Below, piece by piece: positions 25,590 to 59,144 of a stretch of DNA of 64,000 bases (positions are counted from its first letter, which is position 1; the number at the start of each line of letters is the position of its first letter). A program made the position numbers and the translations under genes. The notes beneath the pieces are model-generated. The model was not told the DNA's origin, did not search any database, and was given only the letters and a program-made list of their open reading frames with translations. The DNA is from Candidatus Poribacteria bacterium (lineage in GTDB: Bacteria > Poribacteria > WGA-4E > WGA-3G): the NCBI GenBank assembly GCA_965205015.1, contig OZ242029.1:2496001-2560000 (forward strand), given 5' to 3'.

Positions 25590-25620
25590 ATAATCGGAAA
25601 GACAATGTGGTTATAGATTC

Positions 25621-26272: not shown

Positions 26273-26896
26273 ATGAGATCAGCTCGCTATACCGATAATG
26301 TTTTCATCAATTGCCCATTTGATTTAATGTATAAGCCATTGTTTGATGCGATGGTGTTTACTGTCCACGATTGCGGTTTCATTGCCCGGTGCGCACTTGA
26401 GGAAGAAGACGCAAGTCAGGTCCGCATTGATAAAATTTACAACATCATTGCGGATTGTCGTTATGGAATTCACGATATATCCAGAACGGAATTAGACGAG
26501 AATTCGGGGTTTCCTCGATTTAACATGCCTCTGGAGCTGGGTATTTTCCTTGGGGCAAAGAAGTTCGGAGTAGCGGATCAGAAAACGAAAAAATGTCTCG
26601 TCTTGGATAAAGAGCCGTATCGGTATCAGCAATTTATCTCGGATATCGCAGGACAAGATATTCAGGCACATAACAACGATGTTGAAATGATTGTGAGAGG
26701 CGTTCGGAACTGGCTCCGCACCGCATCAGGACGGCAGACGATTCCTGGCGGAAACATCATTTGGGAACGTTACCAGACCTTTCTGAGAGATCTGCCTCAA
26801 ACGGCTGAGGAGTATCAATTAGAAGCTGAAGAAATGATTTTCCATGATTACATTTTTGTAATAGGAAAATGGTTAGTAGCTGCAAGAGGGCATTGA
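26273..26896 (+). CDS. Nucleoside 2-deoxyribosyltransferase/TIR-like fold protein
   Basis: VFINCPFD, RIDKIYNIIADCRYGIHDIS, FNMPLELG (N-x-x-x-ELG), SDIAGQDI. Confidence 0.7.
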   Translation: MRSARYTDNVFINCPFDLMYKPLFDAMVFTVHDCGFIARCALEEEDASQVRIDKIYNIIADCRYGIHDISRTELDENSGFPRFNMPLELGIFLGAKKFGVADQKTKKCLVLDKEPYRYQQFISDIAGQDIQAHNNDVEMIVRGVRNWLRTASGRQTIPGGNIIWERYQTFLRDLPQTAEEYQLEAEEMIFHDYIFVIGKWLVAARGH

Positions 26897-26925
26897 TTGA
26901 AGCATAGCTCAAGGAAGTAATCCAC

Positions 26926-30208: not shown

Positions 30209-31063
30209 TCAAGCGGATTCGGAGATTGGGAGCACATCGCGCTCGACTTCGTGGACTTTACTGGGATAAGTTTTGCCGCGAATCCACATGACAGCGCAAC
30301 CTCGCTCCGGTTTAGGCGTCACCCATTCTGCTTGCGCACTGAGGTAATGGGCGACGAAACTCCGGCGGAACCGTAGACTGTGGTTGTCCATGCTCTTGTG
30401 CAGGAGATGACTATGGAACCAGATGACGGCACCAGGTGGCACTTCTACCGCTACACCGTCTTCATCGCGAACACCGCGTGCCATTTTGAACTCCCGCTGC
30501 TGTGAGCCTTCAAGGTCTCCATGCTGAAAGATGTCCCATTTATGGCTACCAGGGATGACGTAGAGACAACCGTTCTCTTTGTCTGCCGGGTCAATAGCCG
30601 TCCATGTTCCAACAGTCGTCTCTGTATTAAACCGAGTGCGGAAGTAGAACTTATCTTGATGCCACGGGAAACCGAGACCAATCTTGGGAGCCTTCCAAAT
30701 GAACAACGTGTTGATACCGAGAATATCTGGACCAAGTAGATCGACCAATGGATCAGTGAGCCGAGGATCCCGCACACGTGTGAGGAATTCTGGGTCGTAG
30801 CAACTCGGAAAATGGATTTTGTGCATCGCGTAGATGCCTTGCTGTGCTGCTTTCCCGTCTCTGACGAGGGCATTTTGATCGATGTGTACGGACGGGAAGG
30901 GACGTTTTCTGTCCACAATGTCTTCAGCGACTTGGCGGAATGCATCGTTCTCTTCGGGGGTGAATACGTTCAAACGGACAAGGTAACCGTTCTCGTTCCA
31001 GTATGAGAGTTCATCCGGGCTTAGTTTAAAACGCCGATTCTGTGGTGTTGGTTCTGCGTTCAT
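30209..31063 (-). CDS. PhyH-family dioxygenase
   Basis: WNENGYL, PWHQD, AIDPADKENGCLYVIPGSH, LLHKS..N.S...R. Confidence 0.92.
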   Translation of the reverse strand: MNAEPTPQNRRFKLSPDELSYWNENGYLVRLNVFTPEENDAFRQVAEDIVDRKRPFPSVHIDQNALVRDGKAAQQGIYAMHKIHFPSCYDPEFLTRVRDPRLTDPLVDLLGPDILGINTLFIWKAPKIGLGFPWHQDKFYFRTRFNTETTVGTWTAIDPADKENGCLYVIPGSHKWDIFQHGDLEGSQQREFKMARGVRDEDGVAVEVPPGAVIWFHSHLLHKSMDNHSLRFRRSFVAHYLSAQAEWVTPKPERGCAVMWIRGKTYPSKVHEVERDVLPISESA

Positions 31064-31162
31064 TTTAATCTCCTGTTCCTTGATTTGCAGCGGTGGGCGA
31101 CAATCTTTTGAAGGGCTGTGGAAATAATAACACATTTGGTGGAAAAGTCAACCCGTTTTTTC

Positions 31163-32754: not shown

Positions 32755-34197
32755 ATGGCAGGATTTGATGGATATAATACTGATGGATTTTATGATGAGA
32801 TGTTTACGGCTGATGGAAGTGCCCGTCCCGCGGTTCAGATGTTGGTAGAACGCATTGAAGGTTTTCCGGAAGGCGAGTTAGCGCGTCGTCACATTGCCGC
32901 TGAACATGCTTTGCTGCGAATGGGCATAACCTTCAATGTCTATGCGGACGAACAGGGCATCGAAAAGATTTTTCCGTTCGACCTGATCCCGCGAATCATC
33001 GATGCGAGTGAATGGAACTGGATAGAGCGCGGGCTCAAACAGCGCATCCACGCGCTGAATCTATTCATTGACGACGTTTACCACGATCAGAAGATCCTCA
33101 AAGATGGCGTTGTCCCGGCAGATGTCGTGCTTTCATCGGAACGGTATCTGCAGCAATGCATCGGCTTGGATCCGCCGCGCGGTGTTTGGTGTCACATCAC
33201 TGGGACGGATTTGGTTCGCGATGGCGATGGGCAGATTTATGTCTTGGAAGATAATCTCGGGTGTCCGTCAGGGGTTTCCTACGTCGTGGAGAACCGACAG
33301 TTAATGAAACGGACCTTCCCGCAGCTTTTTGGGATGTCGCAGATTCAACCCGTGGAGGATTACCCGAGCCAACTTCTGAATATGCTTCGGTACCTTGTGA
33401 CTGACAAGGTACTGACCCCTGAAGTGGCTGTGCTGACGCCTGGCATTTACAACTCCGCCTACTTTGAACACTCTTTCTTGGCACAGCAGATGGGTGTCGA
33501 ATTGGTTGAGGGGCGCGATCTTGTCGTGATGGACGGATTTGTGCACATGCGAACAACGAAAGGTTTTGAGCGTGTTGATGTCATCTATCGCCGTATTAAC
33601 GACGATTTCCTTGACCCAACGGTGCTTAATCCTGAATCAATGCTGGGTGTTCCAGGCTTGATGGAGGTTTACAAAGCGGGACGGGTCGCTTTGGTCAATG
33701 CCCCCGGGACTTGTGTCGCCGATGACAAAGTCGTCTGTTCGTTTGTGCCACAGATTATCAAGTATTATCTCGGCGAAGATATTATCGTTCCAAATGTTCC
33801 GACCTATATGTGTTGGGAAGATACGGATCGAAAATACGTTTTGGAGCATCTCGATGAACTCGTTGTCAAAGAAGCAAATCAGTCGGGTGGTTATGGGATG
33901 TTGATCGGTCCGCATTCAACCAAGGCAGCGTGTGAGGAATTTGCCCGCCGCATCAAAGAGAACCCACGCAACTACATTGCGCAACCGACGCTCTCGCTTT
34001 CACGGGTGCCTGTGTTGATTAACGACCATTTTGAAGGACGACACGTTGACTTGCGTCCGTTCATCCTTTACGGCGAAGATATCTATGTGCTTCCGGGTGG
34101 ATTAACACGGGTCGCCCTCAAGAAAGGCTCACTGGTCGTCAATTCGTCCCAAGGTGGTGGTAGCAAGGATACTTGGGTCTTATCGAACTCGGCGTAG
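32755..34197 (+). CDS. Circularly permuted ATP-grasp (type 2) peptide ligase
   Basis: GITFNVY, PFDLIPR, LEDNL..PSGVSY, VLTPGIYNSAYFEH, HVDLRP, VVNSSQGGGSKDTW. Confidence 0.93.
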   Translation: MAGFDGYNTDGFYDEMFTADGSARPAVQMLVERIEGFPEGELARRHIAAEHALLRMGITFNVYADEQGIEKIFPFDLIPRIIDASEWNWIERGLKQRIHALNLFIDDVYHDQKILKDGVVPADVVLSSERYLQQCIGLDPPRGVWCHITGTDLVRDGDGQIYVLEDNLGCPSGVSYVVENRQLMKRTFPQLFGMSQIQPVEDYPSQLLNMLRYLVTDKVLTPEVAVLTPGIYNSAYFEHSFLAQQMGVELVEGRDLVVMDGFVHMRTTKGFERVDVIYRRINDDFLDPTVLNPESMLGVPGLMEVYKAGRVALVNAPGTCVADDKVVCSFVPQIIKYYLGEDIIVPNVPTYMCWEDTDRKYVLEHLDELVVKEANQSGGYGMLIGPHSTKAACEEFARRIKENPRNYIAQPTLSLSRVPVLINDHFEGRHVDLRPFILYGEDIYVLPGGLTRVALKKGSLVVNSSQGGGSKDTWVLSNSA

Positions 34198-34206
34198 GAG
34201 GATGTC

Positions 34207-35175
34207 ATGCTAAGTCGCGTTGCGGAATCAATTTACTGGATGAGTCGCTACATTGAACGTGCCGAAAATGTTGCGCGTTTTGTAGATGTCAACCTCCACC
34301 TCATTCTCGACCTACCGGTCGGTGTACAGGCACAGTGGGAACCCTTGGTAGCCACGACAGGTGATGATGAAGTATTCGCTGAACGCTACGGTGAAGCATC
34401 ACGCGAAGCGGTGATTCGGTTTTTAGCATTTGACACTGAAAATCCGAATTCAATTGTCTCTTGTCTGCGGGCTGGACGTGAAAATGCCCGATCGGTCCGT
34501 GAAAATATCTCGTCAGAGATGTGGGAACAGTTAAATGATGCCTACTTATTGGTGACAAACACCTCCGAACAGTGGGCGATGGCGGAGCCTCATGAATTCT
34601 TTAGAGACATCAAACTTGCATCACATCTCTTCATGGGACTCACAGATAATGTGATGTCCCATAGCGAAGCGTGGCACTTCTGTCAGTTGGGGCGTTTGAT
34701 TGAGCGTGCCGACAAGACATCAAGAATCGTAGATGTTAAATATTTTATTCTACTTCCATCCGTGTGGGATGTGGATACACCGTTTGATGATATTCAGTGG
34801 GGAGCATTGTTGCACTCTGCCAGTGGTTTTGAGATGTATCGTCGGACCTACGGGCTCATCTCCCCAAATGAAGTCGTCTCCTTTTTATTGCTGGATCGTG
34901 AGTTTCCGCGGTCGGTACTTTATTGTCTTTCCAAGGCTGAAGAATCATTGCATGCGATCTCCAGCACCCCGTTAGAAACCTTCTCCAACCCAGCGGAACA
35001 GCGGTTGGGGCAGCTGCGTGCTGAATTTGCGTATGCCCAAGTCAAACAGATTCTCAGGATGGGTTTGCACGAGTTTCTCGATGCCTTCCAAACGAAGCTG
35101 AACTTAGTCGGTGATGACATTCACAAGACCTTTTTTGCTTTGCGGCCCGTCAATGGAGAACCCGCGGAGGAATAG
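34207..35175 (+). CDS. Alpha-E domain protein
   Basis: MLSRVAESIYWMSRYIERAEN, ERADKTSR, FPRS. Confidence 0.93.
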   Translation: MLSRVAESIYWMSRYIERAENVARFVDVNLHLILDLPVGVQAQWEPLVATTGDDEVFAERYGEASREAVIRFLAFDTENPNSIVSCLRAGRENARSVRENISSEMWEQLNDAYLLVTNTSEQWAMAEPHEFFRDIKLASHLFMGLTDNVMSHSEAWHFCQLGRLIERADKTSRIVDVKYFILLPSVWDVDTPFDDIQWGALLHSASGFEMYRRTYGLISPNEVVSFLLLDREFPRSVLYCLSKAEESLHAISSTPLETFSNPAEQRLGQLRAEFAYAQVKQILRMGLHEFLDAFQTKLNLVGDDIHKTFFALRPVNGEPAEE

Positions 35176-37908
35176 TTGAAGGTGATAGACGATAATTATA
35201 ACATCCCTATAGAAGAGGTTCGTAACCTCGATTCTTTTAGTTTGCCTTATGGACGGACAGGCGACTTTCCGGGTGGACAGATCGATGAGATGCTGAACCG
35301 GGATGGACAGGTCAATCCGCATTGGCGCGCCTTCATGCAGGCACTCGACATCTTGGGACTCACAGAGATGGAATCTCGCGACGAAGAGGTAAAGCGGCTC
35401 CTCCGTGAAAATGGTGTTACTTACGTCTTACACGGGGAGCAACAGGGACACCGCCCGTGGGAACTTGATCCTATTCCATTTATCATTTCGAACACTGACT
35501 GGCAAACTATCTCTGATGGACTTATCCAGCGCGCCGAACTGCTGAACCTAATTTTGACCGATCTCTACGGGGAACGCACTTTAATCAAAGAGGGGGTAAT
35601 ACCCCCAGAAGTGGTTTATGCACATGCCGGATTTTTACGCGCCTGTGTTGGGCTTGCTCCGTGTGAATTCCCATTCCTTCTGAATTATGCCGCCGATTTA
35701 GCACGCGGACCGGATGGCAATATGTGGATACTCAGTGATCGGACACAGGCCCCCTCAGGGGCAGGTTATGCGCTTGAGAACCGCACTGTCCTCGCGCGAG
35801 CACTGCCGAATCTCTTTGGTGAAGTTGGTGTTCATCGACTCTCCTTTTTCTTCCGAGCACTCCAGAACAGTGTAGCAGATCTGCAATATCAACTCGAAAG
35901 TGCCATCCGCATTGCCCCGAACCAGACAGAAAATCCACACGTCGTTGTACTCACCCCTGGGCCCCTCAACGAAACTTACTTTGAGCATGCCTATCTCGCG
36001 AATTACCTCGGTTATACTTTAGTCCAAGGTGACGATTTGACGGTGTGGGATGGGCGTGTTTGGCTAAAATCGATTGATGGTCTACGTCCTGTTGATATTA
36101 TTCTGCGTCGGGTAGACGACATCTTCTGCGATCCATTGGAACTCCGACAAGATTCGCGCCTTGGCGTTGCAGGCTTGTTGGAGGCAATTCGGCAGGGAAA
36201 CGTGATCGTGATAAACCCACCCGGCAGCGGTGTTTTGGAAAATCCGGGCTTGATACCGTTCCTACCGAGTATCGCAAAACGGTTGATGGGCGAAGACCTC
36301 CGTCTTCCCTCTGCTGCAACGTGGTGGTGTGGGCAACCGAAGGAGCGAGAATATGTATTGGCAAATCTTGAGACGCTGGTTATTAAAGCTATTCATCGTC
36401 AACCGGGCGATCAACCTCTGTTTGGGACCCAATTGAGCAAGGCAGAACGTGACGCGCTCCGCATCCAGATCAATGCTAATCCATACTTATACGTGGGACA
36501 GGAACAGATTCACCTATCGACAACACCCTCGCTGATTGAAGGAAGACTTGAACCCCGCCGTGCAATCCTGCGTTGTTTTCTATTTGCTGAGAAAGAGGGA
36601 TACGCCGTGATGCCGGGGGCACTCACGCGTTGTGCGGGAGAGAGAGACGAGGTAACGATCTCGATCCAAGATGGTGGTGTTAGCAAAGACACTTGGGTGC
36701 TCGCTTCAGAACCTGAACCACATGTGAGTTTATGGCAGCGGCGTATCACCGAGGTGCGGGGTCCTGCTTCTACGAATCCTGCTGGATTGTCGAGTCGGTC
36801 GGCTGAAAACCTATTCTGGGTCGGTCGCTATGCGGAACGCGCCGAGGGGCAAGCGCGGCTCCTCCGAATTATGTTGGATAAAGTTAAGATGAGTAAAATG
36901 GGTTTGGAGACTTCGACTTTAGGCGAGGTGCCACCGTCCACTGTTTTCACAGAGATCGTTGGCGAAGATGCGAGAAAGGTTTCTGAACTTGCGTACCTCC
37001 GTAGTATGCTCCATTCTCTCACGGGTTTGCGGTCATCTCACCCGGGTTTTGTCAGTAAGGACGAACAATCATTGGAAAGCGATCTCCTTTCTATCATGCG
37101 GGATACAGAAAACAGTGGGAGCCTGGTGTCAACACTTCAGGCGCTCCTCAGCGCGGCGTATGCTGTCCGGGATCGCTGGTCTACCGATACGTGGCGTGTG
37201 ATGAACAATATTGAGGATTTATGTGCTACACTTGATAGGAATATGCCCGAAGAAAGTGGCACAGATGCACAGGTACTAACGAATTTTATTTTACAAGACA
37301 CAGAATTGGCTGCACTTGACCAACTCGTGATTTTTCTTTCTGCATTAAGCGGACTTAATGCAGAGAGCATGACGCGAACGATCGGTTGGATTAGTTTGGA
37401 TATAGGGCGGCGTATTGAGCGCGCCCTGCTTCTGATTGTGCTTTGTCGTTCAAGTCTCGTCGCGGTGCAAGATGAATGGATCGAACGCCTCCTGCTTGAA
37501 TCTGTTCTCGCTGCGGCTGAAAGTCTGATCACTTACCGCAGCCGCTATCGTGCGGCACTTCACTTTCCAACTGCTCTTGAATTGCTACTTCTCGATGAAC
37601 ACAATCCACGCTCACTTCTATATCAATTGAAACGACTGGAGGAACAAATCCAAGTGCTTCCGAGAGAGAAACTCGGCTATCGGCTCAGCGAAGAAGAACA
37701 ACTCATTTTGGAGGCACTCACGCAGTTGCAACTCTCCGATACAGTGGACCTCTCAGAACGTTCAGAGCATACGACACAACGGAGGGGATTAGAAAAACTC
37801 TTGGTTCGGCTTGCCCAAATACTAATTGCTATTTCCGATGTCCTGACGCAGACGTATTTCAGTCACGTCCAAGGACCTCAGCAGCTTATTACCACGAATA
37901 ACCCGTAG
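35176..37908 (+). CDS. Circularly permuted ATP-grasp fused to alpha-E domain
   Basis: PWELDPIP, DRTQAPSGAGYALENR, TPGPLNETYFEH, SKDTW, then SRSAENLFWVGRYAERAE, GRRIER, NPRS. Confidence 0.92.
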   Translation: MKVIDDNYNIPIEEVRNLDSFSLPYGRTGDFPGGQIDEMLNRDGQVNPHWRAFMQALDILGLTEMESRDEEVKRLLRENGVTYVLHGEQQGHRPWELDPIPFIISNTDWQTISDGLIQRAELLNLILTDLYGERTLIKEGVIPPEVVYAHAGFLRACVGLAPCEFPFLLNYAADLARGPDGNMWILSDRTQAPSGAGYALENRTVLARALPNLFGEVGVHRLSFFFRALQNSVADLQYQLESAIRIAPNQTENPHVVVLTPGPLNETYFEHAYLANYLGYTLVQGDDLTVWDGRVWLKSIDGLRPVDIILRRVDDIFCDPLELRQDSRLGVAGLLEAIRQGNVIVINPPGSGVLENPGLIPFLPSIAKRLMGEDLRLPSAATWWCGQPKEREYVLANLETLVIKAIHRQPGDQPLFGTQLSKAERDALRIQINANPYLYVGQEQIHLSTTPSLIEGRLEPRRAILRCFLFAEKEGYAVMPGALTRCAGERDEVTISIQDGGVSKDTWVLASEPEPHVSLWQRRITEVRGPASTNPAGLSSRSAENLFWVGRYAERAEGQARLLRIMLDKVKMSKMGLETSTLGEVPPSTVFTEIVGEDARKVSELAYLRSMLHSLTGLRSSHPGFVSKDEQSLESDLLSIMRDTENSGSLVSTLQALLSAAYAVRDRWSTDTWRVMNNIEDLCATLDRNMPEESGTDAQVLTNFILQDTELAALDQLVIFLSALSGLNAESMTRTIGWISLDIGRRIERALLLIVLCRSSLVAVQDEWIERLLLESVLAAAESLITYRSRYRAALHFPTALELLLLDEHNPRSLLYQLKRLEEQIQVLPREKLGYRLSEEEQLILEALTQLQLSDTVDLSERSEHTTQRRGLEKLLVRLAQILIAISDVLTQTYFSHVQGPQQLITTNNP

Positions 37909-37951
37909 CGGGATACCTCGTGTTCTGTTTCTCCAATATTGGATTATTGTC

Positions 37952-38833
37952 ATGAATTATAGGATTATTCACAAGACTGAATACAGTTACAGCGGCTCCG
38001 TGAACCTCTGTTACAACGAAGCGCGCTTGACACCTCGAAGTTTTGTGCATCAACACTGTAGCGACAGTCAATTCGTTGTCGATCCCGAACCTGGCGTGTG
38101 CCGAGAACGTCAGGATTTCTTCGGAAATACCGTCTACTATTTCACAATCCAGCAGCCCCATCGGGAACTCACCGTTACAGTTACGAGTCATGTACAAGTC
38201 AGAGGCAGAGAGATGCAATTGGATTTCGCCGAACATTTGGCGTGGGAGGAAGTCCGTCAGCGCATACAAACAGATATGGATCCAGAGGTTCTGGAGTTGC
38301 GGCAGTACGTTCTCGACTCCTCTATGATTCCGACGATACCTGAACTCCGGACGTATGCTGAGAAGTCATTTCCCAAAAATCGACCCCTGCTGGAAGCGGT
38401 TGAAGCGTTAACCGCTCGTCTCTACACCGACTTTACGTATGACCCAAATTTCACGACAGTCGCGACACCGTTGGCGGATGTGATACAGCACCGCCGAGGG
38501 GTTTGTCAAGACTTCGCGCATCTCGGTATTGGCTGTCTACGGTCGTTGGGGCTTGCTGCGCGGTATGTCAGCGGGTATATCGAAACCGACCCACCACCCG
38601 GCCAGGAACCTTTAGAGGGTGCCGATGCTTCCCATGCATGGTTTTCGGTCTATCTCCCACAACTCGGTTGGGTGGATTTCGATCCGACAAATAATCAGAT
38701 ACCCGCAGATCAGCATATCACAGTCGCGTGGGGACGAGATTACTCGGATGTAACGCCATTGAAGGGCGTTATTTTTGGAAGTGGTACACACGCATTATCT
38801 GTTTCGGTGGATTGCCAACGGGAAAATTTTTAA
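37952..38833 (+). CDS. Transglutaminase-like protein
   Basis: YRIIHKTEY, GVCQDFAH, ARYVSGY, SHAW, FDPTN, GRDYSDV. Confidence 0.93.
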   Translation: MNYRIIHKTEYSYSGSVNLCYNEARLTPRSFVHQHCSDSQFVVDPEPGVCRERQDFFGNTVYYFTIQQPHRELTVTVTSHVQVRGREMQLDFAEHLAWEEVRQRIQTDMDPEVLELRQYVLDSSMIPTIPELRTYAEKSFPKNRPLLEAVEALTARLYTDFTYDPNFTTVATPLADVIQHRRGVCQDFAHLGIGCLRSLGLAARYVSGYIETDPPPGQEPLEGADASHAWFSVYLPQLGWVDFDPTNNQIPADQHITVAWGRDYSDVTPLKGVIFGSGTHALSVSVDCQRENF

Positions 38834-44433: not shown

Positions 44434-47400
44434 ATGCGATACATCAAGCCCATCGTTTGGTTCATTTTTATCTTCTCCGGTGCCAGTGGACTTATCTATC
44501 AAGTCATCTGGATGCGGCAACTCACGCTCATTTTCGGGAGCACTGTTTTCGCAACGAGTACCGTCCTGACGGCGTTCATGGCAGGCCTCGCACTCGGTAG
44601 TTACTACTTCGGTAGGAAGATCGACGAAAGCACACTTACGGGCGAGGCGACCTCGCCCCTACGGATGTATGCGCTTCTGGAAGCCGGTATCGGTGCGTTC
44701 TGTCTTGTGTGGCCCCTCATTTTAACGGCACTTGGCGCGATCTATGTGCTGATCCATCGCAACGTCACATCGGAATTCTATACCCTCTCTCTGATTCGGT
44801 TTCTGTTGACCTTCGGGGTCATCTTGATTCCCTCTACGTTGATGGGCGGCACACTCCCGGTGCTGACCCGATTCTTTGTGAAAAGATTGGAGCAACTCGG
44901 CACGAACATCGGAATCCTGTATGCGTTGAACACGTTCGGTGCCGTTGTTGGAACTGTGGCGGCGGGTTTTTTCCTGATTGAGGCGTTGGGCATCCGATGG
45001 ACACTCGGGATCGGGATCGCTATCAATTTCGCTGTCGCAGCGGTTGCATTAGCATTAGCACAGAAGGTATCGGGAACAGAAGCGGACGAACCGCCTGAAG
45101 AAACACAACACGCGGAATCTGAAGATGTGCCCTATCTACCTGAAAGGCAATTAGTGTTATGGGCGATAGGTATCTCCGGGTTCTGTGCTTTGGCGTATGA
45201 AGTGTTATGGACCCGTATCATGGTCTTCTTCCTTGGGAGCACGACGTATGCGTTTGCGACGATGCTTGCGGCGTTCCTGTTCGGCATTGCACTGGGGAGC
45301 ATGGTGTTTTCGCGCTGGGTTGACCGGATTAAACAACCGATCGCGGTTTTCGGCATCGTTCAGCTCGGTATCGGGCTCTTCGCGCTTATCTTGATGCCGG
45401 CGTTTGAGGAGTTGTACGGGATGAGCCAAGCGTTCCAATCGACGTTCGGTGTGAGCAGATTTTGGGCGTTTTTCTCCTGTTTTCTTGTGATGTGTCTGCC
45501 GACGTTTCTGATGGGCGCGAGTTTTCCACTCGTAACGAAAATTTACACAGGTAACGCACGCCAATTGGGGAGGAGTATCGGAAACGTCTATGCAGTCAAC
45601 ACGGTTGGAAGTATTTTGGGCGCGTTTTGTGCGGGGTTTATCCTGATTCCATTGCTGGGTATCCGACCGAGTATCGTGCTGACGGTGGTTTTGAACACGG
45701 GCATTGGATGTTTTCTTGTTTTAAAAGATAGGGCGCGGGAAACCGAAACAGGAAGATCGCTCCTACAAGGCGTAGGCGTAGGGATACCGGTTCTCAGTGC
45801 TGGGTTGGCTGTGATTCTCTTGCTTACGGTGAATCAACCGCTCTTTCTGAAGAGTACTATTTTCAAAACGCAACGTCCCGGCGATACACTCATTGATTAC
45901 AACGAAGAGGTGGATGCCACCGTAACGACGTTAAAAGATGATGAAGGGGTCTACCGTCTCTATGTGGATACAAATCAAGCAGCAGATGCCTCGCGCTGGG
46001 ATTCACCGTCGCATCGCGTCATTGCGCACCTACCGTTACTGTTGCACCCACGTCCGAAACAGGCACTCGTCGTCGGGTTCGGTATGGGGCTTACCTCACA
46101 TTCAATCACACAGCACGGTGTCCGCGTCGATGCGATAGAATTGTCCAGTGGTGTGATTTCCGCGGCGCAAAAGCATTTCACGCACATCAATGGAAATGTG
46201 TTTGAGAATCCATTGTTCAATTATAGACTCAATGACGGACGAAATCATATCCTGATGACGAAGACGAAGTACGACATGATCTCAACGGGTATTATCCATC
46301 CGCTTGTGAGTGCGGGGAGTTCCAATATCTATACAGCGGACTTTTACCGACTCTGTCGTCGGATTCTGAGTGAAGATGGGATTATGTGCCAGTGGGTGCC
46401 GTTGCATCGCTTACCGGAGGCACACTATAAGATGATTGTGCGTACCTTCATTGAGGTGTTCCCACAGACGACGCTGTGGTACAAATACACACCCGATTTT
46501 GTGATTCTCATTGGCACGCCTGAGCCGCTCCGAATTGACTACAAAAACTTCATGGCACGTGCACGGATCGCGAGTATCCGCGAAGGGCTTGCTGCCGATG
46601 ACCTTGACGGTCCGTCGCTCCTCGATTCATTCATGATGGGACCCGAAACTGTGCGTAAATACGCTGGCGTTGGACCGATTCACACAGACAACCGTCCTCG
46701 ATTAGAATTCTTTCGGGGGATAGACTTGGTGGGGACGACACTGCAAAACGTTAAAGGGATGTCAGAATATCGGGAGCGGGTGCTACCTTATCTCGAAAAC
46801 TACGGCGCAACACTTGCAGAGAAACGGGGTGTCCGAGAGAAGCTCGACACTTACTTCAGAGCCACACAGCGGTTAATCCGTGGACAGATTGCTTACGCCA
46901 GTGGGCAGTATCAGAGTGCCGCATCGCTCATGAATGATGCTGTAGAAATCAACCCTGTTGACGAGACAATTCGTTACAACTTCGGTGTAGTTGCAGGCTT
47001 AATCCGTGAAGGTGAACAGGAAGAACTCCGACAGATTGAAAAGCAGGTACAGCAAACAATGGCGCAAAATCCTGATGACCTTCAGGGACACCTCCACTTG
47101 GCGACCTTATATGAGATGCAGGGTGAACTTGGAAAGGCAACGCGGGAACTGGAAGCGCTGCTCAGACGCGATCCAAAAAGATTTGAGGTCTACCTACTCT
47201 TGGGTCCCTTATATGAACGCCAAGAGCGATACCAGGATGCGCTTCGGACTTATGAACGACTTGAACGGCAGGCAACAACTTCGCAGCTGCCTGCGCCTAT
47301 TTTTGCGGCAATGGCGGGGCTCCATCTGCAATTAGAAAATCTAAAGGAAGCTGAAAGATATGGAAAGAAGGGCATCGCGACAGATGCCAATTCGTGGCGT

Positions 47401-47577
47401 TCACATTACATTCTTGGAAACGTTTACGCCGCTATGAATCAACCGCGGAAACAGATAGCGTCCTACGACACTGCCTTGAAAGTACTTGATGGAATCATCC
47501 GTGTTACCACAGATCCGAGTGAGTTATTGCGTGCCAGAGAACAGATCCAAAATGAACTTGAACGGCTTAGAAAATAA
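44434..47577 (+). CDS. Fused MFS-like membrane domain / spermidine synthase-like domain with C-terminal TPRs
   Basis: SGASGLIYQVIW, LMGGTLP, LYALNTFG, ALVVGFGMG, DGRNH, CQWVPL, TPR helices. Confidence 0.88.
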   Translation: MRYIKPIVWFIFIFSGASGLIYQVIWMRQLTLIFGSTVFATSTVLTAFMAGLALGSYYFGRKIDESTLTGEATSPLRMYALLEAGIGAFCLVWPLILTALGAIYVLIHRNVTSEFYTLSLIRFLLTFGVILIPSTLMGGTLPVLTRFFVKRLEQLGTNIGILYALNTFGAVVGTVAAGFFLIEALGIRWTLGIGIAINFAVAAVALALAQKVSGTEADEPPEETQHAESEDVPYLPERQLVLWAIGISGFCALAYEVLWTRIMVFFLGSTTYAFATMLAAFLFGIALGSMVFSRWVDRIKQPIAVFGIVQLGIGLFALILMPAFEELYGMSQAFQSTFGVSRFWAFFSCFLVMCLPTFLMGASFPLVTKIYTGNARQLGRSIGNVYAVNTVGSILGAFCAGFILIPLLGIRPSIVLTVVLNTGIGCFLVLKDRARETETGRSLLQGVGVGIPVLSAGLAVILLLTVNQPLFLKSTIFKTQRPGDTLIDYNEEVDATVTTLKDDEGVYRLYVDTNQAADASRWDSPSHRVIAHLPLLLHPRPKQALVVGFGMGLTSHSITQHGVRVDAIELSSGVISAAQKHFTHINGNVFENPLFNYRLNDGRNHILMTKTKYDMISTGIIHPLVSAGSSNIYTADFYRLCRRILSEDGIMCQWVPLHRLPEAHYKMIVRTFIEVFPQTTLWYKYTPDFVILIGTPEPLRIDYKNFMARARIASIREGLAADDLDGPSLLDSFMMGPETVRKYAGVGPIHTDNRPRLEFFRGIDLVGTTLQNVKGMSEYRERVLPYLENYGATLAEKRGVREKLDTYFRATQRLIRGQIAYASGQYQSAASLMNDAVEINPVDETIRYNFGVVAGLIREGEQEELRQIEKQVQQTMAQNPDDLQGHLHLATLYEMQGELGKATRELEALLRRDPKRFEVYLLLGPLYERQERYQDALRTYERLERQATTSQLPAPIFAAMAGLHLQLENLKEAERYGKKGIATDANSWRSHYILGNVYAAMNQPRKQIASYDTALKVLDGIIRVTTDPSELLRAREQIQNELERLRK

Positions 47578-47920: not shown

Positions 47921-49960
47921 ATGTCTCAAGAAACTCAAGAAGCTACATCACCTTGTTTAAAACGGACCCATTATTGTGGGGACCTGCGCTTAGCCGATGC
48001 AGGCGTCACTGTGCAACTCAACGGCTGGGTCAACCGCCGTCGAGACCATGGGGGCGTCATCTTCGTTGATTTACGCGATAGAACAGGCATCACACAAGTT
48101 GTCTTTGATCCACAGATTGATGAAAAAGCACACGTCCTCGCAGATAGTATTAGAAGCGAATATGTGCTGAACGTCAGCGGCATCGTCCGCGAACGGGATC
48201 CAGGCGAATTGCTGTTCCATGCGGACGCTGCGTACCAGACGGAACTCGCCGATGGCACCCTCTCCGCAGCGTTCCGATCTCTGTTTTCGGATGTCGATAC
48301 GAAGTACACCCTCTCTGAAGAGATTGAGGTAGCGACCCGCGTCGCCGGCACGCGGTGGCTGCTCACCGATGTCGAAAACAATCGGACGTATCACATCGTC
48401 AGTGAAGATGCGGGGGCGGAAAACGGTCTCAGCATTTATCAAGGCACGGTCAACCCGGAACTCGATACGGGTGAAATTGAAGTCGCTGTGGATTCTCTGA
48501 ATATTCTGAATACTGCCAAAACGCCGCCGTTCCCAGTTGAAGACGACGTTGACGTAGCGGAAGACATTCGGATGCGCTACCGATTCGTCGATCTACGCCG
48601 TCCTGAGATGCAGAAGACTTTGGCGATGCGGCATAAGGCAGCACTTGCAGCACGCAACTATATGAACGAGCAGGGTTTCCTTGAGATTGAGACTCCCATT
48701 TTGATGAACAGCACGCCAGAGGGGGCGCGCGATGTACTCGTTCCGAGTCGTCATTACCCCGGCAGGTTCTATGCGCTTCCACAATCCCCGCAGCAGTTCA
48801 AACAGATTTTGATGATGAGCGGTGTTGATCGGTATTTCCAGATAGCACGGTGCTTCCGCGATGAGGATACCCGTGCTGACAGACAGTTGGAATTCACCCA
48901 GCTTGATATTGAAATGTCATTCGCCGACGTGGACGATGTACTTGAGGTGACCGAGGGGTTGATGAAACGCATATTTGAGGATGCGGGGGGTATTCCCGTC
49001 CAAACGCCTTTCCTACGGCTCCCATATTACGAGTCGATGGCACGGTTCGGGAACGACAAACCCGACACGCGGTTCGGTATGGAGCTGACCGATCTCTCGG
49101 ATGTCATGGCGGACTGTGAGTTTCAGGTATTTACACGCACCTTGTCGGCAGGTGGGCAGGTTAAAGCCATTGCCGCGCCAGGGGGTGCAGACTTTTCACG
49201 CAAAGATATCGATGACCTGACGCAATTTGTCGCCATCTATCGCGCGAAAGGATTGGCATGGGTTAAGGTCACAGCAGACGGATTTTCCTCGGGTATCGTT
49301 AAGTTCTTCACAACAGAGCAACTTGAAACGGCACAGGAGAGAACGGGCGCGAAACCGGGCGATATCATGTTCTTTGTCGCCGACACACCGAAGGTCGTCG
49401 CCGATGCCCTCGGCAACCTCCGCCTCCACCTCGGACGCAAACTCAACCTCATTGACGAAACTCGGTACAACTTCCTGTGGATCGTTGATTATCCGCTGTT
49501 TGAGTGGAACGAGGATGAGAATCGGTATGAATCGGTACATCATCTATTCAGCGCGCCGAAAGAAGAATTTCTACCGCTCTTAGAGACGGATCCGAGTAAA
49601 GTCCAAGGTCAACACTACGATCTGGTGTGCAACGGCTATGAGATCTGTAGCGGAAGCGTGAGAATTCACCAGTGGGATGTTCAACAGAAGGTGTTTAAGA
49701 TTATAGGCATTACACCCGAGGATGTCAAAAATCGCTTTGGCTATTTCATAGACGCCTTGGCGTATGGCACGCCGCCGCATGCAGGTATTGCCCCGGGTTT
49801 AGACCGGATTGTTATGTTGATGCGGAATGAGGAGAACATCCGAGAGGTCATCGCGTTCCCGAAATCGCAACAGGGACTGTGCCCGCTCACACACGCTCCC
49901 TCTGTTGTAACGGATGCCCAACTGGAAGAGTTATCAATTCGCGTTGATGCAGAACTCTAA
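47921..49960 (+). CDS. aspS: Aspartate--tRNA ligase with 80-aa insertion
   Basis: RTHYCG, RDHGGVIFVDLRD, STPEGARD, LPQSPQ, CFRDED, PPHAGIAPGLDR. Confidence 0.97.
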   Translation: MSQETQEATSPCLKRTHYCGDLRLADAGVTVQLNGWVNRRRDHGGVIFVDLRDRTGITQVVFDPQIDEKAHVLADSIRSEYVLNVSGIVRERDPGELLFHADAAYQTELADGTLSAAFRSLFSDVDTKYTLSEEIEVATRVAGTRWLLTDVENNRTYHIVSEDAGAENGLSIYQGTVNPELDTGEIEVAVDSLNILNTAKTPPFPVEDDVDVAEDIRMRYRFVDLRRPEMQKTLAMRHKAALAARNYMNEQGFLEIETPILMNSTPEGARDVLVPSRHYPGRFYALPQSPQQFKQILMMSGVDRYFQIARCFRDEDTRADRQLEFTQLDIEMSFADVDDVLEVTEGLMKRIFEDAGGIPVQTPFLRLPYYESMARFGNDKPDTRFGMELTDLSDVMADCEFQVFTRTLSAGGQVKAIAAPGGADFSRKDIDDLTQFVAIYRAKGLAWVKVTADGFSSGIVKFFTTEQLETAQERTGAKPGDIMFFVADTPKVVADALGNLRLHLGRKLNLIDETRYNFLWIVDYPLFEWNEDENRYESVHHLFSAPKEEFLPLLETDPSKVQGQHYDLVCNGYEICSGSVRIHQWDVQQKVFKIIGITPEDVKNRFGYFIDALAYGTPPHAGIAPGLDRIVMLMRNEENIREVIAFPKSQQGLCPLTHAPSVVTDAQLEELSIRVDAEL

Positions 49961-50254: not shown

Positions 50255-51838
50255 ATGAACGAAAATGGAAATAAGCCAAAGGTCAGCCTCGGTCTGCTGT
50301 ACGGGATTGTCATTGCGATTATCGCTGGAGCGATTATCGGTGGGTTCGCGCCAGACTTTGCAGTCCATACAACAATACTCGGTGAAATATTCCTAAACCT
50401 CCTGAAAATGATAGTCGTGCCGCTCGTTGTTCTATCCATGGTAGTCGGGATAACGAATTTAGGCGATATTCGCAACATCGGTTCCATCGGTGGACGGACT
50501 GTTCTGTACTACATGGCGACAACCGCTATTTCCGTTCTCATCGGCATCATTCTCGTCAACATCATCTTGCCCGGGAAGGGACTCTCACAAGGCGAAGAAC
50601 GCTCGGATCTGAGTTACACACTCTCGGGTCCTGAGATGCTCACTGCTGAGTTGAGTGGGGAATTCAATCGGACCTATAACAATAAATACGTCATTACCCT
50701 CATCGACCAAGACATCCGGGGTGAAGTCGAATCAATTTCGGGAGCAACCGTCACAGTAAAATCGTGGCAACCCTTCAAGGACGCCCGTTATGTCACCACT
50801 GACGATGGGGAACGTTTGTTGTTCTCTGAGGGTCGGCTCGTCAGGATAGAACCCAACGCTACCGGTAAAGGCATTGACATCAGCTTACCGATCGCTACAA
50901 GAATGTCCGACAAAACGGAGCGGACGATGGGCAACACCATCAAAGAGGTATTCCTCGGCAACGAAAAGACCGGCAAAGAGGGGATGATCCCTTCGAACGT
51001 TTTCAAAGCGATGGTGCACACTGACATTCTCCCCTTAATCTTTTTCTCACTCCTCATTGGTGCCGCCTTGTCCATGCTTGGGGATATCGGAAAACCCGTT
51101 ATCTCCGTGATTGCGGGATTAAACGAAGCAGTGATGAAGCTCGTCCATTGGATTATGTATGTTGCACCCGTCGGCATCTTCGGCTTAATCGCCGGTAGGA
51201 TTGGTGAGGCAAAGGGATTCGCAGGTTTCTGGCCCGAACTCATTGCAGTCGGCAAGTACAGTGCCACAGTATTGTTAGGGCTCGGCTTACACGCTGTTGT
51301 CGTTTTACCGCTACTGCTGCTGTTCCTCGGACGCAGAAATCCAATTGACTACTTCAAGGGCATGGCAACTGCCTTATTGAACGCCTTTTCAACGGCGAGT
51401 TCAAGTGCGACCCTGCCCCTAACGATGGAAGGGGTTGAGAATCAGAACGGGGTCTCCAGACGGACCTCCAGTTTCGTCCTTCCCTTAGGCGCTACCATTA
51501 ACATGGACGGCACCGCACTCTATGAGGCGGTCGCTGTCATGTTCATCGCGCAGGTCTATGCGATCAACATGGATCCCGCGCAACAAATTGTTGTGGTGCT
51601 CACCGCGACCTTGGCAGCAATCGGCGCAGCAGGGATTCCGGAGGCAGGCCTCGTCACAATGGTTATTGTACTCAGAGCCGTGGACCTCCCCGTTGAAGGT
51701 ATCACACTGATTCTCTCTATCGATTGGCTCCTTGATCGCTTCCGTACCACAATTAACGTCTGGGGTGACAGCATCGGGGCAGGCGTAATTGAGAGATATG
51801 AATCCGGAGATTCAACTGACGCGCCAGCAACGGCGTAA
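50255..51838 (+). CDS. Dicarboxylate/amino acid:cation symporter (DAACS)
   Basis: FLNLLKMIVVPL, AFSTASSSATLP, PLGATINMDGTALYE, DWLLDRFRT. Confidence 0.95.
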   Translation: MNENGNKPKVSLGLLYGIVIAIIAGAIIGGFAPDFAVHTTILGEIFLNLLKMIVVPLVVLSMVVGITNLGDIRNIGSIGGRTVLYYMATTAISVLIGIILVNIILPGKGLSQGEERSDLSYTLSGPEMLTAELSGEFNRTYNNKYVITLIDQDIRGEVESISGATVTVKSWQPFKDARYVTTDDGERLLFSEGRLVRIEPNATGKGIDISLPIATRMSDKTERTMGNTIKEVFLGNEKTGKEGMIPSNVFKAMVHTDILPLIFFSLLIGAALSMLGDIGKPVISVIAGLNEAVMKLVHWIMYVAPVGIFGLIAGRIGEAKGFAGFWPELIAVGKYSATVLLGLGLHAVVVLPLLLLFLGRRNPIDYFKGMATALLNAFSTASSSATLPLTMEGVENQNGVSRRTSSFVLPLGATINMDGTALYEAVAVMFIAQVYAINMDPAQQIVVVLTATLAAIGAAGIPEAGLVTMVIVLRAVDLPVEGITLILSIDWLLDRFRTTINVWGDSIGAGVIERYESGDSTDAPATA

Positions 51839-51863
51839 ATGCCGCATCGTTAAGAAGTATCAA

Positions 51864-54146
51864 ATGAACACGCCCAATGAACCGAATCCACAGCAGATAG
51901 TGCTCAGTGTTACAGCGATTCTCTCCATTATCAGCGTCGTGCTCGCCGCCGGATGGATAGCCTTTGCCTATTACAAAGGCAGTGCTAACAGCAGTCGAAT
52001 ACTACTGCTGCACCCAGTCGTACCGATACTGCTGATTGTTTTGCTTATCCGCGTTTACCGCTGGATCGACCTAAAAAGTATCGTTATTCTTGAGATACTG
52101 ATGATAACTGTATGGATTTTTATACGTTTGTTGGGCGTGCTGACCCCTTTCATTTTAGGATTTGGCTTTGCTTATATCTTTAGGTTTCTCTGGAATGCTC
52201 TCCCCTTTAAAGCACAATACCAACGTGGGATCGCGACAGTCCTGATTTTACTCGTTTGTGGTGGGCTGCTCTTCTATACTGGAAAACAGGTGAGTAAACA
52301 AGCAAGTCAGATGGGCAGTGGGTTACTGAAGTTTTATCATGAAATTGTTCTGCCTTATGTCGTCGGTGAAACGTTTGAGGCAATCGCTATCAGTGTTAAT
52401 AGCAGTCAGGAAGAGAACCGCTCACCTGAAGGTTTCCCGCGAGAACCGATGGAAACCGATAGCCAATACGTAGAGACGTTCTACCTCGGGACGAACCACG
52501 GTGTCTATGAAATTCGACAGCGGACAGAGGGGGAGCACAGTATTGGTATCACGAACGGTGCCCTTCTTGGTAAACCGATACAAGCCCTTGCAGCAGTTGG
52601 AAATGTTATCTACGCTGGTACGCAGAGTGGGTTATATCGGTATTACAAGGCGTTGCCTACGGATGTCCCGGAAGCAATTGACGGTGAGGCAACAAGTACC
52701 CAGAACATCAAACCGAAGATATGGCATAGGGTGCAAGGGACCCCCTTCGATACTATTTCCGTCCAAACTCTCAACGTTCCGACTTGGGATAATGCCCAGA
52801 TTTATGTTGGAACACAAAAAGGACTCTACAGCAGTAGGGATTTAGGACGAACATGGCGTGAGGTTGCCCCTGACACTTATGGTGAAAGGTCGATCGTCAG
52901 TATTGTCTCAATTGTGGATGCGAATGGCGATAGGACAATTTATGTCGCCAGTACAGCGATAATTGATGCGATGCCTTCAGAAGGGCCGGTCTCCACGCCT
53001 AAAGCTACAACGGTGCATTGGTATCTGGCGGATTCCTCTCTTGAGTGGAATCCGCTTCCTTCTATCATAACGCATCCGGTTTACGCGCTTGCAAGTGGCG
53101 GTAGAACGTGGAGTGATAAGGAATCGGGGTTGCAAACCCCTCCTACACGGGTGTTTGATATTGAACTGTACGCGGGTACGTCCGATGGGCTTTATGAATG
53201 GCATCGTCTCGGCACGTGGCGGAAAACGGAAGGGACCCCTGTCGTCTCGTTGTTAGCGTCGGCACCTTCCGGCGTATACATCGGTACCGAAACTGCTATC
53301 CTTCATCGTGCTACGGCTACTGCGGGTTGGCAGCCGTTTGCGACGCGGAACGAAGGGGTCAGTTACACCTACAGGGACGAGCCTATTGTCCAGCAGGCGA
53401 AAACATACCTGACCGAAAGGCTTCCAACAATAGCCCAAACCGGTAGTGAGGCTGTCAGGGAAGGGGTTCAGTTCGCGGGTTCGATCGCTTTTGGGTTCGG
53501 TGGATTTTTAGCCACAGTGTCACTCGCGTTCATTGTATTTGTCTACGCAAACCAGTCGTTTGACAATTATTTCCGCGGTTTCATCACCTTGGTTCCTGAA
53601 CTCCATCGCGAAACCGTCAAGACTTATCTGCGCGAAATTGATAGAAATTTACAGCAGTTCCTCAAAGGATTAGTTGCGGTCATCGCGATTGTATCTGTGG
53701 TTTCCTGTATTGTGTACAGCATTATCGGTGTACCCTTCGCATTGGTTATTGGTGTTATCGCCGGGATCTGTAATGCTATACCAACCTTTGGACCCTTTAT
53801 CGGTGGCGGTTTCGCCTATGTGGCGATGCTAATGGGACTGGCGGCTGGGGATTTCGGCATAATTGATTTCCTCGTTCGCAGTGCATTTCTGTTAGCTGCC
53901 ATTCTTGGCATTCAGATGCTTGACAACTCATTAATTTCACCGAAAATCATGAGCACCGCTGTTGATGTGGACCCGCTGTTGATTATGTTTGCTGTGATTG
54001 TTGGGGCAGCCGTACTCGGATTTTGGGGTGTATTGCTTGCAATTCCTATGATTGTTGTGGTAAAATCGGTTATTGCCGTTTCTCAATCTGTGGCGACAGA
54101 TGGGCCCACTGTAGGCGGGAACTCCGATTCCCAACTGACGCACTGA
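51864..54146 (+). CDS. AI-2E family transporter with large beta-propeller-like insertion
   Basis: TPFILGFGFAY; NAIPTFGP, DNSLISPKIMS, DPLLI, GFWGVLLAIP; central Y.GT..G.Y repeats. Confidence 0.85.
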   Translation: MNTPNEPNPQQIVLSVTAILSIISVVLAAGWIAFAYYKGSANSSRILLLHPVVPILLIVLLIRVYRWIDLKSIVILEILMITVWIFIRLLGVLTPFILGFGFAYIFRFLWNALPFKAQYQRGIATVLILLVCGGLLFYTGKQVSKQASQMGSGLLKFYHEIVLPYVVGETFEAIAISVNSSQEENRSPEGFPREPMETDSQYVETFYLGTNHGVYEIRQRTEGEHSIGITNGALLGKPIQALAAVGNVIYAGTQSGLYRYYKALPTDVPEAIDGEATSTQNIKPKIWHRVQGTPFDTISVQTLNVPTWDNAQIYVGTQKGLYSSRDLGRTWREVAPDTYGERSIVSIVSIVDANGDRTIYVASTAIIDAMPSEGPVSTPKATTVHWYLADSSLEWNPLPSIITHPVYALASGGRTWSDKESGLQTPPTRVFDIELYAGTSDGLYEWHRLGTWRKTEGTPVVSLLASAPSGVYIGTETAILHRATATAGWQPFATRNEGVSYTYRDEPIVQQAKTYLTERLPTIAQTGSEAVREGVQFAGSIAFGFGGFLATVSLAFIVFVYANQSFDNYFRGFITLVPELHRETVKTYLREIDRNLQQFLKGLVAVIAIVSVVSCIVYSIIGVPFALVIGVIAGICNAIPTFGPFIGGGFAYVAMLMGLAAGDFGIIDFLVRSAFLLAAILGIQMLDNSLISPKIMSTAVDVDPLLIMFAVIVGAAVLGFWGVLLAIPMIVVVKSVIAVSQSVATDGPTVGGNSDSQLTH

Positions 54147-58271: not shown

Positions 58272-59144
58272 TTACCCGCGCCAATTCAGGTTGATGCTGG
58301 TGTAGCCGTGTGTGTATTCGTGAAAGTGCGACGGTAAGTCCGCTAAGAACTGTCTTCCTTCTTCTGGGATCTCCCATGGAATATCGATGTGGTGGTCCCG
58401 TCTCCGAAAACCGACGCCGCACGACAACCGAATTTCATCGATCTGGTTCGGAAATGCACCGTGATACGTCCGATGCGCAAATACAATCATGTCCCCCGGA
58501 TTCGTGAACAGTGGCACCAATCCTGGAATATCAAATCCTACATAAGGTTTTTCTTCTTCACCGATCTTATAGAAGGAGCGTTTGTCTGCTGTCAAGTTGA
58601 AGCCTTCGGGACCTTCCCAGTTCTCAACGTGTGAATTCTCAATAACACATAAACCGCCGTGTTCTGGACGAGAACCCGTCAGGTAGAACCATTTACCTGA
58701 GGGCCAAAATCCACGGTTCAGAACATCACCGGAATTTTTGGGGGCATCTGTTGAAAACCCGCACCAGTCCGTGTGCCATGCGACAGGTTGAGAGCCGGGC
58801 ATCCGAATGATAGCGGCAGATCGGTGGAGGGTCAATTCCTTTGTGCCAATCAGGTGCCGATGGATTTTCATAAAGGGTTCGTATCCCATCAGTTGCCAAG
58901 CCCCGGGTCCAGACTCAATCCACGCGTGTCGGGTGCTACTTTGTCCGTGCTCCAATTCTCTTTTCGGATCTGTGCCATCGAAGACGGCTTTTTTTAAACT
59001 GTCGACCAGGTCTGGAGGCAGGACATCTTTGATAATCGCGAAGCCGTGTGCCTCAAGACATTCGGACACGAGAGAGAGTTGATCGGTTTCAAACTCGTAA
59101 GTGTAGTCAAGTTCAGGTTTCTGAATCTGTAGATATTCTTTCAT
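58272..59144 (-). CDS. PhyH-family dioxygenase
   Basis: LEAHGFAII, AWHTD, GGLCVIENSH, PGDMIVF..RTYHG..PN...R. Confidence 0.88.
   Translation of the reverse strand: MKEYLQIQKPELDYTYEFETDQLSLVSECLEAHGFAIIKDVLPPDLVDSLKKAVFDGTDPKRELEHGQSSTRHAWIESGPGAWQLMGYEPFMKIHRHLIGTKELTLHRSAAIIRMPGSQPVAWHTDWCGFSTDAPKNSGDVLNRGFWPSGKWFYLTGSRPEHGGLCVIENSHVENWEGPEGFNLTADKRSFYKIGEEEKPYVGFDIPGLVPLFTNPGDMIVFAHRTYHGAFPNQIDEIRLSCGVGFRRRDHHIDIPWEIPEEGRQFLADLPSHFHEYTHGYTSINLNWRG

Follow-up and report, generated by a model that had tools for sequence, protein, structure and literature searches.

The stretch of DNA considered here, 64,000 nucleotides of contig OZ242029.1 from a Candidatus Poribacteria bacterium (GenBank assembly GCA_965205015.1, forward-strand positions 2,496,001 to 2,560,000; hereafter the window), carries an aspS gene encoding aspartyl-tRNA synthetase (AspRS) in which the anticodon-binding domain is interrupted by an additional domain of about 80 amino acids (aa). 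The Poribacteria constitute a sponge-associated bacterial phylum. The gene, the insert and the sequences bordering it are arranged in the window as follows.

47921..49960, forward strand: aspS open reading frame including the stop codon, coding for a bacterial-type AspRS of 679 aa (open reading frame call, Pfam and matches to solved AspRS structures).
48011..48217, forward strand: N-terminal anticodon-binding OB-fold part, residues 31-99 (the PF01336 match ends at profile position 67 of 75).
48198..48205, forward strand: left 8-mer ATCCAGGC, codons D-P-G, agreeing with the right 8-mer at seven of eight positions; not a target-site duplication.
48206..48445, forward strand: inserted domain of about 74-80 aa, residues 96-175 (translation, solved-AspRS alignment, AlphaFold2 and family profiles).
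48438..48445, forward strand: right 8-mer ATCAAGGC, codons Y-Q-G, which belong to the domain as its C-terminal Y-x-G (LniY.G is the end of the family consensus).
48446..48508, forward strand: remainder of the loop and last OB strand, TVNPELDTGEIEVAVDSLNIL (the alignment with solved AspRS restarts here; near-invariant in 20 relatives).
48560..49870, forward strand: class II catalytic core, residues 214-650 (Pfam).
49130..49411, forward strand: GAD insertion within the catalytic core, residues 404-497 (Pfam).

The reading frame is uninterrupted across positions 47921-49960 of the forward strand, and the encoded protein carries the three domains of a bacterial-type class IIb AspRS, each above its Pfam cut-off: tRNA-synt_2 (PF00152; E = 1.6e-115), GAD (PF02938; E = 1.6e-28) and the OB fold (PF01336; E = 9.2e-17). 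Its best matches among solved structures are the AspRS enzymes of T. thermophilus, P. aeruginosa and E. coli (E = 3e-179 to 1e-174). Alignment with the T. thermophilus enzyme falls into two pieces, with query residues 13-92 pairing with 2-79 and query residues 177-675 with 82-578, and the intervening 82-84 or so residues (residues 93-176; window positions ~48197-48448) have no counterpart in solved AspRS and replace two loop residues. A preliminary description of this DNA, made from the letters alone, had recognised a foreign domain in a loop of the anticodon-binding domain, and this holds. Both the Pfam and the solved-structure alignments place the insert in the loop between OB strands 4 and 5, ahead of the last OB strand, and the OB residues flanking it are invariant among relatives, including the motif TVNPEL-TGE-E downstream of the insert.

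The 80-residue segment at 48206-48445 reads in translation as the preliminary description had printed it, with E as its first residue and Y-Q-G as its last. The further claim of a length of exactly 80 codons loses its significance, since the insert boundary slides by one G, such that the 80-residue cut is one valid choice, and since the length differs between relatives; it is 76, 77, 80, 81, 86 or 87 aa among the genome loci described below and 76-105 aa, including 88 and 104-105, among 20 sampled AspRS relatives.

Homologues of the insert were sought with a profile derived exclusively from AspRS (24 inserts, from the window and related loci; 76 positions), which was scored against 1.84 billion representative proteins. 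It yielded 251 proteins at E <= 0.001, 29 at E <= 1e-10 and four at E <= 1e-30, with matches outside AspRS reaching E = 1.6e-23 over profile positions 2-75 of 76. A local search of the best 150 of the 251 proteins gave domain-level matches in 147, usually covering positions 2-75 and with one to four copies in each protein. At least four of these 150 are AspRS fragments, as judged by their flanks, and another (P0125) probably is; the others are unrelated to AspRS. The preliminary description had proposed that matches inside multiple unrelated proteins would favour a mobile domain, and such matches do exist, given that nearly all of the 251 proteins are unrelated to AspRS.

A reciprocal profile of 26 non-AspRS copies matched residues 96-174 of the window protein at E = 1.5e-10 (Z = 1.84e9) and, free of AspRS rows, it matched all 121 of 121 AspRS proteins. 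Because this profile holds no AspRS sequence, the test of homology is not circular. The insert of the window is 28-45% identical (median 32%) to 203 non-AspRS copies, and the family consensus runs roughly LLFS-x-D-x-x-FQ-x-DLD...IS..LR..F....LS.N..V.....G..WLITD..N..Y.V.KE...LNIY-x-G. No Pfam family overlaps the domain copies in AspRS or in the family members scanned and NCBIfam holds no family for the domain. When 26 isolated copies were compared with Pfam, no family was matched by more than two members; the best two-member family reached E = 0.056 and one member matched PEX6 N1 at 1e-4. Literature searches produced no description of the AspRS insert or of the domain family. Organism names are available for one PQQ/PAS protein (Candidatus Poribacteria) and for relatives of the trigger factors that carry the module, discussed below (Phycisphaerae/Planctomycetota). 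From these comparisons the insert belongs to a widespread family of alpha/beta domains of about 74 aa that is uncatalogued in Pfam, NCBIfam, PDB and BFVD. It is unusual that a family so sizeable, with 251 representative proteins, is yet absent from the domain and structure libraries searched.

The domain was modelled by itself with AlphaFold2, using an alignment that included unrelated family members, and gave a predicted local distance difference test score (pLDDT) of 89.6 and a predicted TM-score (pTM) of 0.75. The predicted order of elements is b1(2-7) a1(8-15) a2(21-30) b2(40-46) b3(50-55) b4(60-67) b5(74-79), and the insert is thus modelled as a compact, autonomously folding alpha/beta module, in line with the folded alpha/beta module supposed earlier. 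Even in a poor model of the full-length protein, the insert is predicted better than the rest of the N-terminal part, block means for residues 91-170 being 65-88. Fold searches with the insert model gave no match at E <= 0.001 in the PDB (best E 0.4; TM-score at most 0.54) or among the viral predicted structures of BFVD (best E 0.21), and the ESM Atlas provided no usable match for either the insert or a three-copy family member. Helix-grip structures recur among the weak, non-significant PDB matches (2kte, 1xn6, 8es5, 8iha, 2yh6, 2laf and 3tgo). Helix-grip folds, such as the SRPBCC/AHSA1 and BamC domains, have the same beta-alpha-alpha-beta4 order as the insert, but they are about twice its size and yielded no significant match, and the predicted resemblance is a lead only.

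In three AspRS relatives of 712-722 aa (P0120-P0122) the insert extends to 104-105 aa, with about 25 extra residues (LTWSVRSSDGEVFFHSD) between the first helix and the rest. This extra stretch resembles the domain's own W-x-x-x-D...Y strand pair and looks like an added hairpin.

Selection on the insert was estimated for 17 sequences that carry it in the 80-codon form, with 113 of 136 pairs usable and the others dropped for undefined or very low synonymous divergence (dS). The median ratio of nonsynonymous to synonymous substitution (dN/dS), to be read as a rough value, was 0.143 for the insert, 0.058 for the 80 upstream codons in the OB part and 0.026 for the 200 downstream codons in the core. 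The insert is under purifying selection as a protein and is less constrained than its host; the order of the three gene parts is clear. Between 16 and 20 positions of the insert are invariant, and they include the polar residues Q11, S20, R45, D55, N58 and R60.

The distribution of the insert among AspRS was examined by a search with residues 60-230 of the window protein, which retrieved 4163 proteins at E <= 0.001. The best 120 of these cover the region fully at 61-92% identity and all carry AspRS Pfam domains; the named proteins among them are from Candidatus Poribacteria and there is no insert-free form among these 120. A scan of genomes, one per species, employed an insert-only alignment and a single pattern derived from it, Dx[EK]NNRTY[HDE]. 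Confirmation reduced its 154 pattern matches to 94, and 80 of these were kept, 78 of them titled Poribacteria and two "uncultured bacterium". The match lies in an AspRS frame with the OB motif in 80 of 80 loci, and the FRDED motif is present in 79, the exception being a truncated locus. The gene upstream of aspS keeps its side and strand in 77 of the 80 loci and the downstream symporter lies beside aspS in 37, the flanks being short on that side.

On a tree of 227 domain copies, built from only 73 columns that leave the deep forks unresolved, the AspRS copies constitute one clade with 99% support, and hence have a single origin. The insert in AspRS is best described as a single old insertion, apparently inherited vertically and without current mobility in aspS, because the copies form a single clade in a syntenic and vertically inherited gene and because target-site duplications, inverted repeats and further copies are lacking, as detailed next. 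The preliminary description had envisaged that a segment confined to AspRS and vertically conserved there would speak against a mobile domain; vertical conservation in AspRS was found, confinement to AspRS was not.

Attention had been drawn earlier to a near-perfect 8-bp direct repeat flanking the insert, possibly a target-site duplication. The repeat is present at the two places, with seven of eight letters matching, but it does not exceed chance. With the spacing fixed at exactly 240, 36 of 63,753 window positions show agreement of such quality and, once an offset freedom of 31 x 31 is allowed, an equivalent 8-mer pair was found in 495 of 2000 random pairs of window zones (~25%). Nor is the repeat conserved. 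Both junctions were found in 76 of the 80 loci, the regular expression having missed four, and there the flanking 8-mers match at three (13 loci), four (36), five (22), six (4) or seven (1) positions, with a median of four. Agreement across loci arises because P-G and Q-G codons share letters, and the right-hand QG is part of the domain because the family consensus itself ends in this way. The proposed target-site duplication is therefore supported neither by the comparison with chance nor by conservation.

No terminal inverted repeats occur at the insert ends, and the base composition is not distinct, with a G+C content of 0.57 for the insert against a range of 0.47-0.56 for the gene. Six-frame searches detected no further copy of the domain in the 64-kb window and no copy outside aspS in 483,342 bases of the 80 related loci, where all 80 matches were in aspS. 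A tblastn search of plasmid and phage collections with the three-copy family member gave no match. A transposable or miniature insertion element was rejected as a candidate on the failure of the target-site duplication in both tests, the absence of inverted repeats and the restriction of copies in the searched DNA to aspS.

An intein was likewise rejected. As the preliminary description had observed, intein termini are absent; the insert starts with E and not with Cys, Ser or Thr, it ends with QG and lacks a His-Asn end, and of the required residues only the downstream T is suitable. Even at E <= 1 there is no match to a Hint or intein family, and the element measures 80 aa with a predicted b-a-a-b4 fold. 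To our knowledge, 80 aa is below the size of known mini-inteins. Inteins and Hint domains share with the insert an in-frame location within an essential gene, and they differ in that the insert has no splicing residues or Hint match, is too small and is kept in the protein. It is hardly conceivable that the insert is removed at all, in the manner of an intein or through some other splicing of protein or RNA: its position inside an essential gene is all that favours the idea, and against this stand the terminal residues, the selection acting on the amino acid sequence and the homology to non-spliced repeats in many proteins.

Elsewhere, copies of the family occur as tandem arrays or nested in other domains. 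Scanning the top 41 of the best 150 proteins with Pfam revealed, as hosts, pentapeptide-repeat proteins, an O-antigen-ligase/TPR protein, HAMP/cNMP and cohesin/dockerin proteins, metallophosphatases, a caspase-like protease, UPF0182, CHASE2, SpoIIE/Cache and GAF kinase proteins, and proteins with phage-tail-like domains. A second search, with the 26 non-AspRS copies and with longer proteins examined, gave 30 matches at E <= 1e-5 and added ABC permeases, sensor kinases, an STT3/AglB-like transferase and the Poribacteria PQQ/PAS protein. Nested copies are present in at least six unrelated conserved proteins, namely SecA, trigger factor, TatC, peptidase M50, CHASE2 and UPF0182. The trigger factors carry one copy (residues 108-179) inside Trigger_N, where query residues 102 to 189 correspond to residues 102 to 115 of E. 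coli trigger factor; TatC has a single copy, located in the loop that follows its first helix (query ~40 to 151 corresponding to E. coli TatC 32 to 63); and an RseP-like M50 protease has two copies after its PDZ domains. This habit of nesting in SecA, trigger factor, TatC, RseP-like protease and AspRS, in addition to forming tandem arrays, is an unusual property of the family.

The largest array was seen in a SecA of 1508 aa (P0273), in which eight tandem copies at residues 629-1127 split the P-loop_SecA domain, the second nucleotide-binding domain, following a stretch aligned to residues 5-522 of E. coli SecA. The SecA copies cluster on the domain tree, which fits internal duplication. This SecA is a single sequence on one 7.3-kb contig, and an assembly artefact is possible.

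The gain and loss of the domain could be followed in trigger factors, where relatives of the insert-bearing proteins (P0282-P0413) are named Phycisphaerae or Planctomycetota. The module is present in 46 of 120 Phycisphaerae/Planctomycetota trigger factors, always at the same site, and 74 of the 120 are exactly without it. The junction is clean, with ...DIDFEK|RFLF...NIYEN|IELP... (a 72 aa module) in the one form and ...DIDFEK-IELP... in the other. On a trigger-factor tree, constructed with FastTree only and with the insert columns removed, presence and absence require seven changes, and well-supported branches force at least five of these; after shuffling of the labels, 37 changes were needed on average and none of 500 shuffles was as low. 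On the 227-copy domain tree the trigger-factor copies need two changes, which is compatible with one origin. The pattern is most simply explained if the module was gained once and later lost precisely on several occasions; exchange of alleles could also account for it, and it is possible that the module was gained repeatedly at this one site. Such close pairs with and without the module offer a system in which the clean gain and loss of entire domains can be studied.

These results bear on the earlier proposal of a mobile, non-splicing domain that enters loops of essential genes. Its first part stands, in that the domain lies inside many unrelated proteins (SecA, trigger factor, TatC and RseP-like protease), but there is no current mobility in aspS. 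There is a very slim chance that the insert is an active or recently active mobile coding element, entering essential genes in frame and leaving a target-site duplication. The nesting at surface loops of at least six unrelated conserved proteins would agree with such an element, as would the clean presence and absence in trigger factor with its seven changes, at least five of them forced. It is opposed by a flanking repeat that is at chance level and not conserved, by the lack of terminal inverted repeats, of a distinct base composition and of a second copy anywhere in the window or the related loci (483,342 bases), by the identity of only 28-45% between the AspRS copy and copies in different hosts, by the one origin of the AspRS copies and compatibility of the trigger-factor copies with one origin, and by the lack of any match in plasmid or phage collections. 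A different possibility, which we regard as distinctly unlikely, is that the module spreads as a discrete unit by a DNA-level route into surface loops of unrelated, often essential proteins and is precisely excisable, such that the AspRS copy would be a fixed relic and the trigger-factor polymorphism a more recent trace. If true, this plug-in spread would extend across phyla (Poribacteria, Planctomycetota and others) and to both sides of the membrane.

For the function of the insert, its position in the host is relevant. We take the loop between OB strands 4 and 5 to be the one termed L1, which presumably adjoins conserved anticodon-reading residues and is implicated in the tolerance of U36, distinguishing tRNA-Asp from tRNA-Asn. 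It is unusual to find an insert, in a candidate phylum, in a loop that we assume to discriminate the third anticodon base. A role for the L1 loop is treated in a passage of the preprint 10.64898/2026.05.03.722492, which cites Charron et al. 2003, and PMC9976931 treats non-discriminating AspRS in general terms.

An extra tRNA-binding accessory domain, raising the affinity for tRNA-Asp or tRNA-Asn, would suit a location adjoining the anticodon-reading residues, in so far as the role assigned to the loop is correct. We nevertheless consider it very unlikely. The insert of the window has a net charge of -9, equal to the median over 76 loci (range -13 to -4), such that no basic RNA-binding surface is indicated by charge, and there is no match to an RNA-binding family in Pfam or NCBIfam. 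A known tRNA-binding accessory domain, which the preliminary description had named as a possible identity, was accordingly not recovered. Moreover, the family occurs in contexts that are read as periplasmic, in the TatC loop, the RseP-like protease and the sensor regions of kinases, where RNA is absent. These extracytoplasmic contexts suggest a generic, cofactor-free interaction or spacer module that is not specific to translation. Since the insert is strongly acidic, an RNA-binding or catalytic role is unlikely.

In our view, the AspRS insert is probably a translated and retained copy of the widespread domain of about 74 aa, inserted once and inherited since, and would most likely serve as a lineage-specific accessory surface. 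A single in-frame insertion into the OB strand 4-5 loop would have occurred in an ancestor of the sampled Poribacteria, followed by vertical inheritance with small indels. Nesting within several other host domains points to the two ends of the domain lying close together, which would allow it to fit into a surface loop with the host fold unbroken. The domain may then protrude beside the anticodon-reading loop of AspRS and act as a partner-binding platform, or as a steric or electrostatic gate on tRNA access.

Several considerations weigh against this interpretation. The insert evolves at two to five times the rate of its host, a pace that a passenger under weak constraint would show as well, and dS of about 0.9-1.2 is near saturation, which renders the dN/dS ratios rough. 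The scan pattern was drawn from the insert, so that the 80 loci are insert-bearers by design and do not demonstrate fixation throughout the phylum. The full-length AlphaFold2 model, made from a 20-row alignment, is poor (mean pLDDT 49.6) and cannot be used to orient the insert relative to the OB-fold or the tRNA site. Acidity is not a property of the insert in particular; the entire enzyme is acidic, with a net charge of -37, and this leaves the charge argument weak. The equation of the insert site with the L1 loop is tentative and draws on one passage of preprint 10.64898/2026.05.03.722492.

Alternatively, the domain may be a tolerated passenger, which came to lie in a loop that could accept it, contributes nothing to the function of AspRS and is kept only since its removal would now destabilise the OB-fold. 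We hold this to be possible although unlikely. It would account for the dN/dS of the insert being the highest of the three gene parts (0.143 compared with 0.058 and 0.026), for the variation in insert length from 76 to 105 aa, and for the dispensability of the module in Planctomycetota trigger factors, where 74 of 120 close relatives are without it and the tree requires at least five changes. It is less easily reconciled with a dN/dS well below 1, with the 16-20 invariant positions, polar ones included, and with the lack of an insert-free form among the best 120 of 4163 AspRS relatives, to which the 80 loci, having been found via the insert, can add no evidence of loss.

The preferred explanation, of a retained accessory domain, has parallels among known systems. 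Lineage-specific domain insertions in synthetases are already known, and the insert is in kind one of these; the novelty lies in the domain family as such and in its propensity for nesting within conserved machines. The closest comparison lies within the same protein, in the GAD domain (PF02938) of bacterial-type AspRS, which is likewise a whole folded domain located in an AspRS loop and inherited with the enzyme. It differs from the insert in residing in the catalytic core and not in the OB-fold, and in forming a separate, catalogued family. As far as is known, the GAD domain is general to bacterial-type AspRS and not phylum-specific. Other lineage-specific insertions include the sandwich-barrel-hybrid and BBM2 repeats in the beta and beta-prime subunits of RNA polymerase and the variable region of the second nucleotide-binding domain of SecA. 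Like the insert, these are small autonomous domains, often in tandem, that are lineage-restricted and lie in loops of essential enzymes, but their fold and family are different, and the family of the insert extends to extracytoplasmic loops and to multidomain sensor, repeat and secreted proteins. A further comparison is with Rickettsia palindromic elements and similar miniature repeats inserted in frame, which are short coding modules present in many unrelated genes and located at protein surfaces. The insert differs from them in having no palindromic or inverted-repeat DNA and no DNA-level copies, in sharing 28-45% identity at the protein level and in forming what is predicted to be a compact folded domain. 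The locus thus offers a candidate new domain family and a natural experiment on the tolerance of the anticodon site of aminoacyl-tRNA synthetases.

Some of the neighbouring genes in the window also merit description. Upstream of aspS, at 44434-47577 on the forward strand, lies a gene for a fusion protein of 1047 aa that combines an MFS-like membrane part, a spermidine-synthase-like domain and TPR repeats; its C-terminal part is kept at the same place in 77 of the 80 related loci. Next to aspS on the other side, the sodium:dicarboxylate symporter (50255-51838, forward strand) has a Pfam SDF match that is split in two, the best stretch comprising residues 243-514 and profile positions 120-386. 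About 110-130 extra residues, around positions 110-240 of the protein, represent another insertion in a conserved protein, and this extra stretch gave no match to the AspRS-insert family. It is followed at 51789-54146 (forward strand) by a gene for an AI-2E family transporter of 785 aa, in which the family match is limited to residues 558-763 and a long N-terminal part is unexplained.

Further upstream, a defence-like cluster at 20908-28170 (forward strand) encodes proteins of 989, 526 and 414 aa; the first has an Eco57I-type restriction-modification methylase domain, the second is an AAA_21/AbiEii-like ATPase and the third matches SMODS nucleotidyltransferases weakly. At 32755-38833 (forward strand) there are genes for circularly permuted ATP-grasp and Alpha-E proteins, first separate and then fused (910 aa), followed by a transglutaminase-like gene. 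Two sulfatase genes and three PhyH-type dioxygenase genes are located at 1887-9561, 30209-31135 and 58272-59144, and they fit the use of sulfated polysaccharides that has been reported for Poribacteria.

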